32,000 bases of DNA, taken from positions 300,001 to 332,000 of the forward strand of contig NZ_OZ060402.1 in assembly GCF_964059045.1 (NCBI RefSeq), given 5' to 3'. Under the pieces are notes generated by a model. That model saw only the letters and a program-made list of their open reading frames with translations, had not been told where the DNA came from and did no database searches. Shown piece after piece: positions 7,298-29,417 of this stretch; position 1 is the first letter of the stretch; every line of letters starts with the position of its first letter. Source of the stretch: Candidatus Saccharimonadota bacterium (lineage in GTDB: Bacteria; Pseudomonadota; Gammaproteobacteria; Enterobacterales; Enterobacteriaceae). The position numbers were made by a program, and so were the translations under genes.

Positions 7298-7637
7298 ATT
7301 GAATAATAATTATAGTTAGAATGAATTTAATTGTTTTAAAAATTATATATCAATTTAATAATTAATATTAATATTTTAAACAAATATTTATTATAAAAAA
7401 ATTATTTATTTTTAATTTTTTATAAAATTTTCAATCAAATATAATGCAATTATATATTAATAATAACAATTCATTGTATATATTTAAATGAAATTAAAAA
7501 TTTTAAGTAGATTTTTAATTTCAAAAATCTTATTAATTTTTTAAAATTTATTAAAATAATTTTATTTTTATTTTGATATTATTAAATATTTATTAAACAT
7601 TCAAAATATATTATCTTTTAAACATAAACTAAATAAA

Positions 7638-7684
7638 TTAACAATCTAAAAATATTATTTTTAATAATATTTTTAGATTGTTAA
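7638..7684. repeat. 47-nt perfect hairpin (22-bp arms ttaacaatctaaaaatattatt / aataatatttttagattgttaa, loop ttt)
   Basis: The reverse complement of the left arm equals the right arm exactly. It lies in the middle of the 913-bp gene-free mfd-gapA spacer. Confidence 0.85.
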
Positions 7685-8225
7685 AAATAAAAAATCATTC
7701 AAAATATAAATATATATAAATTTATTATTGATATGGATTAAATTTTAAAATTTTCATTATTTTCTATAAAAATATCAAAAAAATTAACATTAATACATGT
7801 TAATGAAGTGATCAAAAAATTATTTAAATATAAGAATATTTTATTTTAATTAATTTTTATTATTTTTAAAATAATACACAATAATTATCGTAATACATTG
7901 ATTTTTGATAAAAACATTTTATTTAAATTGTAAATTAATATAATAGTTATTATTTTATTAATATTTTATTAATTTAATTTATTAATTAATATCAATAATT
8001 TTGAAACAATTACACATATTTTATCAATTGATTTAAAATTTTTTAAGCTTTTTTAAAAAAAATATAAATTATATTTTTTAAAAAAATATTGTATAATTTA
8101 ATAATAAAGTCATTTTTATAAAATAATTTTTAATCATTTTAAAATTTTTATAGTATATATATACTATATATCTATAATTTTTAAAAATATAATCAATTTT
8201 TTAATTTAATATGATGGTGATATTT

Positions 8226-17961: not shown

Positions 17962-18201
17962 TATCAAAATATTAGTACTTTGTAATATTAATCAAACTAA
18001 TTCAAAATAAAAAATTATCTATTTTTTTTATTTTAGTGTAATAATATTTCTAAAATATATAAAACATAAATTTTTAATATAATTCAATATTATGTCAATA
18101 TTCTAAAAAATTTTTTATGAGATTATATATAAATATATATCTTAACATAATTAATATTATAAAATATTTTTACATAATATATTTTATAAATGGTGGTTTT
18201 T

Positions 18202-19164
18202 ATGATTAAAACAATTGGAGTATTAACAAGTGGTGGTGATGCACCTGGTATGAATGCAGCTATTAGAGGTGTTGTTCGTCGAGCAATTAGTGAAGGTTTA
18301 GAAGTGTTTGGAATATATGATGGATATTTAGGTTTATGTCAAGACAGAATGATAAAATTAAATAGATATAGCGTATCAGATATTATTAATCGTGGTGGTA
18401 CATTTCTAGGTTCAGCACGATTCACAGATTTTTGTAAACATAATATACGTTTTTTAGCTATTAAAAATTTAAGAAAAAGAGGAATAGATGTATTAGTGAT
18501 TATTGGAGGAGATGGTTCATACATGGGAGCAAATCTTTTGACACAGATGGGATTTCCTTGTATAGGTATACCTGGAACTATTGATAATGATGTCGCTGGT
18601 ACTGATTATACAATTGGATATTTTACAGCTTTAGAAACAGTAGTAGAAGCTATTGATAGATTAAGAGATACATCTTCTTCACATCAAAGAATTTCTATTG
18701 TAGAAGTAATGGGTCGATATTGTGGAGATTTGACTTTAGCTGCTGCAATTGCAGGAGGGTGCGAATTTATTGTTATTCCTGAAATTTATTTTACGAAAAA
18801 AGAATTATTATCAGAAATATTAACTGGAATTAAAAATGGGAAAAAACATGCTATAGTCGCTATTACTGAATACATTTGTAATGTATACGAGTTGGCAAAA
18901 TATATTGAAATGCATACTAAAAGAGAAACAAGAGCTACAATTCTTGGACATGTTCAAAGAGGAGGTGCTCCTGTAGTATATGATAGAATTTTAGCTTCAA
19001 GAATGGGTTCATATTCTATTGAATTACTATTAAAAGGCTATGGTGGTCATTGTGTAGGAATTCAAAATGATCAAATGGTACATCATGATATTACTGATGC
19101 TCTAAAAAATATGAAAAAACCATTTAAAGCTGATTGGTTAGAAACTGCTAAAAAATTATATTAA
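18202..19164 (+). CDS. pfkA: ATP-dependent 6-phosphofructokinase
   Basis: [26 protein letters not shown] is near-identical to E. coli PfkA. Other motifs: [34 protein letters not shown], and the same C-terminus KKLY. Start placed at ATG 18202 (GGTGG upstream) rather than the tracked 18190. Confidence 0.95.
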
Positions 19165-19265: not shown

Positions 19266-20065
19266 ATGAATTGTTTTTTAAAAAAATTATATTGTAATAA
19301 ACAGTGTTTAACTGAATTTATAGGCACTGGATTAATTTTATTCATGAGTAGTAGTTATATTGCACTTTTATCTATCAATAACATAAACATTGAACCATGG
19401 ATAATAAATATTGTATTAAATATAAATCTAATAATTATTATTTATTGTAGTAAATCTATTTCAGGTGCTCATTTAAATCCTGCAATTACTATAATTTTTT
19501 ATTTATTTTTTCAATTTCCAAAAAAAAAAGTCATTCCTTATATTATTTCTCAAACTTTAGGTTCTTTTTTTTTTCTATTATATCATATCTAATTTTTAAT
19601 AAAATATTAATTATTTTTAATAATACATATTATATTATGAAACATCATTTAAATCATGTTTATTTTGTTTCTTTTTTTTCTTTATATGTAGAACATAATC
19701 ATTTATTGTTAGTAAATTTATTTATAGAATTACTAATTTCCGCTATTTTTATAATTTTTATTATTTTTTTAAATGAGTATAAAGATTATTTTATTTTAAA
19801 TCATATTGATTGTTCTCCATTAATTATTGGTTTAGTTTTAATTATTATTAATAATACAATTGGTAATAATATAGTTTTTTGTTTAAATCCAGCTTTAGAT
19901 TTAAGTCCTAAAATTTTTTCTTTATTAAATATTTATTTAAGAAATTTATATTTAATAAATATCCCAAATTTATTTTCTTTTTTTTTTATACCAATCATTG
20001 GTCCTATATTAGGGTTTATAATAGGTGTGTACGGATATAATTTTATCCATAAAATTTTTAAATAA
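19266..20065 (+). pseudogene. glpF: glycerol uptake facilitator (aquaglyceroporin), interrupted by a frameshift in a T10 run
   Basis: ORF 19266-19592 matches E. coli GlpF residues ~1-105 (TEFIGTGL, SGAHLNPAITI). ORF 19637-20065 matches ~118-260 (second NPA: CLNPALDLSPK). The two are in different frames. The second frame is open back to 19592, and its translation (IFNKILIIFNNTYYIM) stays colinear with GlpF. One extra T in the run 19565-19574 would give a continuous 266-aa protein. Confidence 0.85.
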
Positions 20066-20093: not shown

Positions 20094-20870
20094 TTAATGT
20101 AATTGAGATAATTTTATAATTGTAGAAAACGTATTATATTGCAATGCAGCTCCTCCAATTAATACACCATCTACATCTTGTTCTTTTAAAATAATTTTTA
20201 TATTTTTTTCGTTAACTGATCCTCCATATATAAATAGTGTATTAGTGTGTTCACTATGATTAACAATTTTTATTTTATTTATATAATTTTTTATGTATTG
20301 ATGAATATTGTTAATATATTCTGGATCAGGAATAATACCTGTACCTATAGACCAAATAGGTTCATATGCAATTATAGAACGATCAAATGCATTATCACCA
20401 CAAAGATTAAATATTAAATCTAATTGTTTTTGAATAATAATTTTAGTTTTATTTTTTAATTTTTCGTTTTTGTTTTCACCAATGCATAAAATTGGAATAC
20501 AATTAAATTTTTTAATTAATTGAAATTTTTTAGCAACTAACATATCATCTTCATGATGATTTTTTCTTCTTTCAGAATGACCTAATAAAACATATTTAAT
20601 GCCAATATCTTTTAACATTAAAATAGAAGTTTCTCCAGTAAAAGCCCCTGAACAATTTAAATCAATATTTTGAGATCCTAAAACAATATTTTTTTGATAA
20701 ATTATTTTATAAATATAATCTAAATATAAATTTGGAGGTAATATAATAATAGTATTATGAATAGAGTTATTTATTATGAAATCAGTTAATGGTATAAACA
20801 TATCATGAATAGATTTTTTATTACCATTTAATTTCCAATTACCTATAATTACAGGTTTTTGAATTTTCAT
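20094..20870 (-). CDS. tpiA: triose-phosphate isomerase
   Basis: 258 aa versus 255 aa in E. coli. Motifs: IGNWKLNG, SGAFTGETS, LGHSERR, AYEPIWSIGTG, YGGSV. AAGGT SD upstream of the ATG. Confidence 0.95.
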   Translation of the reverse strand: MKIQKPVIIGNWKLNGNKKSIHDMFIPLTDFIINNSIHNTIIILPPNLYLDYIYKIIYQKNIVLGSQNIDLNCSGAFTGETSILMLKDIGIKYVLLGHSERRKNHHEDDMLVAKKFQLIKKFNCIPILCIGENKNEKLKNKTKIIIQKQLDLIFNLCGDNAFDRSIIAYEPIWSIGTGIIPDPEYINNIHQYIKNYINKIKIVNHSEHTNTLFIYGGSVNEKNIKIILKEQDVDGVLIGGAALQYNTFSTIIKLSQLH

Positions 20871-20961: not shown

Positions 20962-21257
20962 TTAATTTTTTATAACGAGTTCAGTAACATATATTTTTAA
21001 AATTCCTCAATTTTTACTTGGTTTTCAAGAAGGAACTTACTATTAATGCATTATAGTGACTTTTCTATTTTTCAAATTTTAGAAATAGCGTGATACACTA
21101 TAATGTAAAGCAAAACTACAAAATTTTCTAATCTCTATTTTTTTTTGATTACATATAGAAATATTAATATATTCTAATATTTTTTTACTATTTTTTTAAT
21201 AATTTTCATTGAAATATTTTTTTATTAATTTTTTTAAAATAATTCTGATTTAGTCAT
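20962..21257 (-). pseudogene. ihfB: integration host factor beta subunit relic (multiple frameshifts and in-frame stops)
   Basis: Translated by hand on the minus strand. AGAGG SD, then ATG at 21257, then MTKSEL (identical to E. coli IhfB), then a stop. After frame changes come KNISMKIIKKIVKK and ILEYINISICNQKKIEIRKFCSFALHYSVSRYF*NLKNRKVTIMH***VPS*KPSKN*GILKIY, versus E. coli [66 protein letters not shown]. No ORF is tracked here. The low-coordinate end is approximate. Confidence 0.8.
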
Positions 21258-28464: not shown

Positions 28465-29417
28465 ATGATAAAAAAAAAATTAAAAATAAATTAATTATTA
28501 TAGGTTCAGGACCTGCTGGTTATACAGCTGCAATTTATGCTGCCAGAGCTAATTTATCACCAGTGTTAATTACTGGAAAAAATCCAGGAGGTCAATTAAC
28601 TACAACTAATGAAATTGAAAATTGGCCTGGAGATATAAATAAAATAACTGGATTAGAATTAATGAATCGTATGAATCAACATTCACTAAAATTTAATACT
28701 AGTATTATTTCTGATTTTATTCATACAGTTAAATTCAATTGTTCACCATTTAAATTATTTGGAGAAGAATACGAATATAGTGCTAATTGTTTAATTATTG
28801 CCACCGGCTCTACAGCAAAATATTTAGGTTTAAAATCTGAAAAAAACTTTTTAGGGAAAGGTGTATCAACATGCGCTACTTGCGATGGTTTTTTTTATAA
28901 AGAAAAAATAGTAGCGGTTATTGGTGGAGGCAATACTGCTGTTGAAGAAGCATTATATTTATCTAATATAGCATCAAAAGTCTATTTAATTCATCGTCAG
29001 GAAAAACTAAAAGCTGAAAAAATTTTAATAACACGATTATTAGAAAAAATAAAAAATAATAAAATAATTTTTTACAACAACACGATTGTTCTAGATATTT
29101 TAGGTGATGAAATATCAATAAAAAAAATTAAGATTAAAAATAACAAAAATAATATTCAAGAAATTAATATATCTGGTATTTTTGTTGCAATTGGACATAA
29201 TCCAAATTCTAATATCTTTAAAGATCAATTAAAATTAAAAAATGGATATATCCAAGTTGATTGTAATTCACATAAAAATTCAACTCAAACTAGTATTCCA
29301 GGAATATTTGCTGCTGGTGATGTAATAGATCATCATTATCGTCAAGCTATTACAGCTGCTTCAACAGGCTGTATGGCTGCTTTAGATGCTGAAAAATATT
29401 TAGACAGTATCTTTTAA
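28465..29417 (+). CDS. trxB: thioredoxin-disulfide reductase, reading frame interrupted in an A10 run 5 nt after the start codon
   Basis: An AAGAG SD precedes ATG 28465. That frame stops after 9 codons (MIKKKLKIN*). The long ORF frame is open from 28422 and encodes [30 protein letters not shown] (FAD GxGxxG motif) upstream of the tracked GTG 28563, but it has no ATG/GTG/TTG start there. One extra A in the run 28470-28479 joins the ATG to the long frame, giving 317 aa versus 321 aa in E. coli. Downstream motifs are intact: redox CATCDG and [10 protein letters not shown]. Confidence 0.85.

Follow-up and report, generated by a model that had tools for sequence, protein, structure and literature searches.

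A glpF gene broken at a ten-T tract in a Buchnera genome: probable erosion, with possible rescue by slippage

What is the standing of a channel gene whose two parts lie in different frames, separated at a run of ten Ts where one further base would join them? Is it a gene on its way to being lost, a gene whose product is still obtained through slippage by polymerase or ribosome, or an intact gene in which one base was missed in sequencing? The question is raised by glpF (19266..20065, forward strand), which encodes a member of the MIP/aquaglyceroporin family, in a stretch of 32,000 nucleotides (the window) whose G+C content is 21.6%. There it lies, as two ORFs, after pfkA (18190/18202-19164, +) and before tpiA (20094-20870, -). 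By the identities of the encoded proteins, the window is part of a Buchnera aphidicola genome most closely related to the symbionts of Eriosoma aphids: its PfkA is 93% identical to that of the Buchnera of Eriosoma lanigerum, 88% to that of Eriosoma harunire and 86% to that of a third sample. (For pfkA itself the ATG at 18202, giving 320 aa, is favoured by homologues and by the database entry P0051, the mechanical ORF of 324 aa starting at 18190.)

The break and the frame restored by one base

The gene is broken by a single −1 frameshift and lacks an uninterrupted frame. The relevant features are as follows, the assignment of the halves being based on the published helix boundaries of GlpF (PMC9490802).

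19252..19255, forward strand: AGGA, Shine-Dalgarno-like, 10 nt 5′ of the glpF ATG; a weak pointer, as many genes of the window are without such a motif
19266..19592, forward strand: upstream ORF, 108 codons; MIP score 71.2 bits for this half alone
19476..19484, forward strand: first NPA motif (N71-P72-A73), intact in HMMER and MAFFT alignments
19520..19529, forward strand: A10 tract (KKK), in frame, a further slippage-prone site in glpF
19565..19574, forward strand: T10 tract, the frameshift site, encoding (S)FFF; run length exactly ten
19575..20065, forward strand: downstream part of glpF in the other frame, with the end of M4, loop C, M5, M6, the second NPA half-helix and M8
19637-20065, forward strand: downstream ORF counted from its ATG, 142 aa; MIP score 33.2 bits
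19978..19987, forward strand: T10 tract (FFF) in the downstream part, in frame, slippage-prone and still unhit

That the split is at the T10 tract at 19565-19574, as proposed in the earlier note, is directly observed, and it is the sole lesion. The upstream ORF, whose start is conserved together with the AGGA motif, comprises M1, M2, the first NPA half-helix and about two thirds of M4, followed by five out-of-frame codons (LLYHI) and TAA, its 3′ end reading ...GSFFFLLYHI*. The downstream frame reads ...FFFFSIISYLIFNKILIIFNNTYYIMKHH... up to 20065; it had been described as open from 19592, and is in fact already open from 19454. Addition of one T to the T10 tract gives an 801-nt ORF of 266 aa, with GSFFFSIISYLIFNK as its predicted junction peptide. 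The repaired protein scores 101.3 bits against Pfam MIP (PF00230), for which the cut-off is 25, and in a HMMER alignment it matches E. coli GlpF (1FX8) over residues 12-259 with an E value of 2.7e-43 and with no gap at the junction. The colinear 266-aa channel expected for T11 is thus read directly from the alignment. Also upheld is the statement that the halves are stop-free over 108 and 142 codons. Stops number 42 and 25 per 265 codons in the other two frames of the same stretch, and of all the single substitutions that the glpF ORF could undergo 5.6% would create one, so the open frames extend far beyond chance.

What would the repaired protein look like? Its AlphaFold model, of moderate confidence (pLDDT 68.5, pTM 0.64), has one continuous helix from residue 86 to 122 that runs through the junction, and its best matches in the PDB are GlpF structures (TM-score 0.75-0.79), with whose helices its own coincide. 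The modelled fold, then, is predicted to be that of six transmembrane helices and two half-helices, the PF00230 threshold being exceeded and two NPA motifs being present. Shared with 1FX8 are the full-length gap-free alignment, both NPA motifs, F200 and the predicted helix layout; the differences are an identity of about 31%, W48L, Asn for the Gly that follows, R206L, the interrupted frame, and a loop C and an M7-M8 loop that are unrecognisable against 1FX8. A scan for promoters and terminators was uninformative (14 promoter-like sites, where shuffled sequence led one to expect 15.1, and 0 terminators).

Could the two pieces function as they stand? The break is near the boundary of the two internal repeats of the MIP fold, and the ATG at 19637 comes directly after helix M4, features that would suit a two-chain MIP formed from the 108-aa piece and a separately initiated 142-aa piece. 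However, M4 would be truncated with residues 104-124 lost, and a Shine-Dalgarno-like motif was looked for before 19637 and none found. We know of no precedent for such a split channel among bacterial MIPs, and consider the idea hardly credible.

Whether the missing base is real, and how it was lost

Seven homopolymers of at least 10 nt occur in the 32 kb of the window and three of them fall within the 800 bp of glpF, an unusual load of slippage-prone tracts. A comparable defect is present in trxB (28465-29417, +), where, as the earlier note had correctly recognised, the same signature of a 10-mer requiring +1 is found: an A10 tract at 28470-28479 puts the ATG at 28465 out of frame with a well-conserved body. 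For trxB, A11 would be needed, and the body frame is without ATG, GTG or TTG until 28563, which is beyond the FAD-binding motif.

In homopolymers the typical direction of undercalling is one base too few, which gives the appearance of a need for +1. With glpF and trxB as the two disrupted genes of the window, both needing exactly +1 at a 10-mer, and with trxB otherwise highly conserved, might the true genome have T11 and an intact, fast-evolving glpF? No independent assembly with which to compare was found, either by exact look-ups of PfkA, TpiA and the 108-aa ORF or by searching metagenome contigs with a pattern spanning the tract. However, all 18 genic 9-mers of the window, and four other genic 10- or 11-mers (one of them an A11), are in frame, so there is no general homopolymer problem in the assembly. 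Intact orthologues have T10 rather than T11 at this site, and an equivalent frameshift in the glpF of the Aphis nasturtii Buchnera is present on two separate contigs. An error of assembly or base calling is, on this evidence, distinctly unlikely.

If the lesion is genuine, was it due to the slip in a homopolymer that was originally proposed, to the exclusion of a deletion? A slip is plausible, and that part of the proposal stands, but its exclusiveness is unproven as the intact orthologues carry an in-frame T10 followed by ACN. The corresponding run in two intact copies, those of Buchnera APS and the Aphis nasturtii strain, has ten Ts already and lies in frame (TCT/GCT TTT TTT TTT ACN), whereas in the window copy T10 is followed by CT. 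The lesion may therefore, from this comparison, have been deletion of the A of an ACT codon or, alternatively, a change of ACT to TCT, giving T11, and then contraction from T11 to T10. Either way, an old and conserved T10 tract encoding Ser-Phe-Phe-Phe would have lost one base at its 3′ edge, and normal decoding would halt after 108 codons, within the third full transmembrane helix.

The selectivity filter and the pattern of divergence

Is the channel that a restored frame would specify still a glycerol channel? The selectivity-filter residues of GlpF are W48, F200 and R206 (PMC9490802), and their counterparts in the window copy were located by HMMER profile alignment against 1FX8, with the MAFFT alignment in agreement.

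19416..19418, forward strand: TTA, Leu51, at the position of W48
19877..19879, forward strand: TTT, Phe205, at the position of F200, retained
19886..19897, forward strand: second NPA motif (residues 208-210, 19886-19894) with Leu211, giving NPAL; the near-universal Arg at the position of R206 is replaced

The presence of Leu for both W48 and R206, first noticed by eye, is confirmed by these alignments, and with Leu51, Phe205 and Leu211 the window GlpF is without an aromatic/arginine filter having the conserved Arg. For wider comparison, the MAFFT alignment comprised 30 sequences, the window copy and 29 homologues, 24 of them from Buchnera. At the R206 position Arg is present in 22 of the 29, His in six (Buchnera of the Aphis clade) and Gln in one (the Nurudea yanoniella strain); Leu occurs there in the window copy alone and none of the homologues has NPAL, which answers a point the earlier note had raised about orthologues. 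At the W48 position 24 of the 29 have Trp, two have Leu, two Cys and one Gly, and the following codon, AAT (Asn52) in the window copy, replaces a Gly that is invariant in all 29. The degeneracy of the filter is a general trait of Buchnera GlpF in these alignments and is not peculiar to the window copy. Five of the other 24 Buchnera proteins have Leu, Cys or Gly for W48, and 22 of the 24 have Ile, Val or Leu at the F200 position where the window copy has Phe. The filter of the Nurudea protein, the only other copy from the eriosomatine lineage, is Leu/Phe/Gln.

What loss of the Arg can entail is known from other members of the family. It is highly conserved across aquaporins, and its replacement by Val in AQP1 allows passage of protons (PMC6937295). 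Natural MIPs with Leu in place of the Arg of the ar/R filter, as in the window GlpF, are the mammalian superaquaporins AQP11 and AQP12 (PMC6937295); however, these are an unrelated, intact eukaryotic subfamily, and the likeness is of one residue with no functional parallel implied.

The filter is part of a larger pattern, which is directly observed. The window GlpF diverges more than any other of the 30 aligned sequences: its identity to free-living GlpF is 31%, in contrast to 40-57% for the other Buchnera proteins, and its best matches, all of them from Buchnera aphidicola, have only about 40% identity to it. Of the 59 positions conserved at 90% or more in the rest, the window copy has lost 16, where others have typically lost 0-3 and at most 10, and most of these losses are of Gly, Ala, Pro or Trp to residues with AT-rich codons. 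A sliding comparison located three degraded patches, residues 36-59, 105-153 and 211-247, which lie to either side of the break and are separated by residues of normal conservation (59-105, 153-211 and 235-259). With the GlpF helix boundaries the patches map to M2 with W48, loop C and the M7-M8 loop, and from the established topology of GlpF they probably form the outer (periplasmic) vestibule together with the filter. The location of the patches on vestibule and filter, with conservation not dropping abruptly at the junction, indicates that selection on selectivity has long been weak, rather than decay subsequent to the frameshift. Decay of the downstream half since the frameshift was considered as an explanation. 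That half is indeed more diverged, the C-terminal half having an identity to free-living GlpF of 0.239 (vs 0.364±0.026) and the N-terminal half 0.419 (vs 0.502±0.034), but with no step at the junction in the sliding profile the proposal was dropped.

How far has decay gone otherwise? Neither the multiple lesions nor the spacer-like composition of an advanced pseudogene is found, there being one lesion, no stop, no second indel and a GC content of 16-19%. At 19.3 and 16.3%, the GC of the two halves is the lowest or near-lowest among ORFs of the window, one 116-aa ORF being at 19.1% and the remaining ORFs at 21-31%, with intergenic spacers at 9.8%; the codon-position periodicity of GC is kept. 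In simulated neutral substitution the probability of having no stop was about 0.3 at 20 changes, about 0.1 at 40 and at most 0.02 at 80. Values of dN/dS (NG86) for the halves against relatives that have glpF, e.g., 0.61/0.83 against Nurudea, are indicative only, as these relatives are about 40% identical and dS, at 0.8-1.4, is saturated.

Elsewhere in the window, erosion is further advanced. An ihfB (himD) pseudogene at 21013-21189 on the reverse strand, in the 464-bp tpiA-rpsA spacer (GC 17%), matches the IhfB proteins of other Buchnera at 45% identity along some 58 codons and has several in-frame stops; the symbionts of E. lanigerum and A. pisum have ihfB intact, and in that of E. harunire it is not called. 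At 7298-8210 lies the window's longest spacer, 913 bp with no ORF of 70 aa or more and a G+C content of 7.9%, where a gene may have eroded completely. Set beside the stop-ridden ihfB relic nearby, the single lesion of glpF and its lack of stops argue that its break is fairly recent.

Erosion or maintenance by slippage

Do the relatives need the gene? In the three nearest, tpiA comes directly after pfkA, at a distance of 358, 477 and 55 bp respectively, and the absence of glpF from them is a direct observation: a search of these spacers for glpF remnants gave only low-complexity noise with tblastn and nothing with hmmsearch --max. In a profile scan of genome contigs for relatives, a single-protein query yielded no confirmed relative, and an alignment query was dominated by free-living Enterobacterales and retrieved no Buchnera. 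Divergence of the window from these relatives is deep, TpiA being about 60% identical and pfkA having a dS of 0.62 to the E. lanigerum Buchnera. Further afield, the strains of A. pisum and S. graminum have GlpF and those of B. pistaciae and C. cedri lack it (PMC3246468).

Frameshifts are also found where the gene is retained. In the Buchnera of A. nasturtii (L084:2011-2020) glpF is frameshifted at an A10 tract, codons 171-174, and in the Buchnera of sample SRR29129670 (L088:1207-1213) at an A7 tract; +1 is needed in each and both parts are open in each. These Aphis-clade copies resemble the window copy in gene, genus, having one homopolymer frameshift that needs +1, and in the openness of the pieces, but the tracts are others (A10, and an A7 a few codons further on) and the events are independent; W48 is kept (one has Leu) and His is at the R206 position, as against Leu/Leu in the window GlpF. 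Given the deletions in relatives and the independent Aphis-clade frameshifts, glpF has been recurrently hit and lost in Buchnera. Its loss or inactivation in related lineages is as expected of a pseudogene, and the relaxed selection on the channel that had earlier been suspected is supported by its deletion from the three nearest relatives and by the window copy being the most divergent of the 30.

The most likely reading, and one that we hold to be on balance probable, is a real and fairly recent frameshift in a weakly constrained glpF, with incidental leaky rescue. The glpF of an Eriosoma-related Buchnera would then have been caught at the first step of its erosion. Constraint would have been weak well before the break, with W48L, G49N, R206L, loop C and the M7-M8 loop already degenerated while the helix core and both NPA motifs persist; the channel would be dispensable in this clade, and the gene would be heading for deletion as in the relatives.

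It is textbook knowledge that Buchnera and Blochmannia have homopolymer frameshifts which slippage may rescue. How might a frameshifted glpF yield a full-length product? Only two ways can be envisaged for the 266-aa channel: RNA polymerase could add one U on the T10/A10 template, or the ribosome could slip −1. By inspection, the tract at 19565-19574 contains the heptamer U_UUU_UUU, a candidate site for −1 ribosomal slippage, and a −1 slip there would be expected to yield the same product as the additional U, the ...GSFFFSIISY... from both routes being identical. In transcription by Buchnera 151 of 157 insertions were in A/T runs, with a rate that climbs exponentially with run length to 11 nt (PMC5574713), and from frameshifted genes of this type about 30% of transcripts are full-length according to Tamas 2008 as cited in PMC3017870. 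In the annotation of Buchnera genomes, genes with a frameshift of this kind are as a matter of routine taken to be expressed (bioRxiv 10.1101/2022.08.28.505559). In having its frameshift within a T run of the length typical of the class that Tamas 2008 described (about 9 nt upwards), and in being otherwise intact, glpF resembles that class. The impaired and rescued genes of Buchnera and Blochmannia, as Tamas 2008 and Wernegreen 2010 are cited for them in PMC3017870, PMC5574713 and bioRxiv 10.1101/2022.08.28.505559, have one indel, situated at an A/T run some 10 nt long, and in them as in glpF the host genome is that of an extremely AT-rich endosymbiont, the ORF is intact on either side, and +1 in the transcript restores the frame; relative to the class as so cited, the window glpF differs in that it is known from genome sequence alone and that its nearest relatives have deleted the gene. 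A near-exact parallel is visC of Blochmannia vafer, with a single indel in an A11 tract and the gene missing from B. floridanus (PMC3017870). The same ambiguity, between very recent erosion and correction by slippage, attends both, though for glpF organism and gene are different and there has been, in addition, long-term degeneration of functional residues. We infer that slippage occurs at the glpF T10, and that its product has little or no remaining selective value.

May the product instead be needed? In that case the frameshift would be old, slippage would make enough in-frame mRNA, selection would keep the halves open, and the tract might even attenuate the dosage of an Arg-less channel. 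Several observations would be accounted for: both halves are stop-free despite the proportion of single substitutions that give a stop, the two further 10-nt tracts of glpF are still in frame, core motifs are kept downstream of the break, +1 is likewise what the trxB of the window requires, and conserved, slippage-rescued homopolymer frameshifts have precedent in Buchnera and Blochmannia. However, the three nearest relatives live without glpF, the copy that would be maintained is the most divergent of 30 with G49 and R206 lost, its excess divergence predates or ignores the junction, and no second genome was found in which this frameshift is conserved. Stable maintenance of a required glpF is accordingly a serious contender that we nevertheless judge unlikely.

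Certain points do count against erosion. The ORF has been open over a long history, as the pfkA dS to the nearest relative attests, so glpF was selected for most of that time, and the lineage of the window may select for it still. The persistence of GC-rich motifs in the downstream part (NPA.DL.PKIF and IPIIGPILG) could mean that this half remains under selection. That the strongly conserved trxB has the same defect favours either efficient rescue in this genome or miscalled homopolymers in the assembly.

A more elaborate proposal is that an old, tolerated frameshift throttles a function-changed, Arg-less GlpF, with T10 serving as an attenuator of dosage via polymerase slippage. We regard this as very improbable. 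If it were true, the fully hydrophobic filter (Leu/Phe/Leu) would possibly pass other small solutes, e.g., ammonia, and a channel of this type could be harmful at full dose since loss of the filter Arg can let protons pass.

Under the favoured reading of recent erosion with leaky rescue, what is gained from this one gene? It is a new example of a known phenomenon and involves no new mechanism, and loss of glpF in Buchnera has already been published; the added value, which is modest, is a comparative picture of the erosion of glpF and of filter degeneracy across the genus. It offers one snapshot of the loss of a transport gene from Buchnera, in which a single lesion follows long decay of the selectivity filter, of a gene that has been frameshifted independently at homopolymers in at least three lineages and deleted in the nearest relatives. 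The degeneracy of the ar/R filter across intact Buchnera GlpF proteins casts doubt on canonical glycerol selectivity genus-wide, and so bears on those metabolic models of the symbiosis that assign transport of glycerol or water to Buchnera GlpF.
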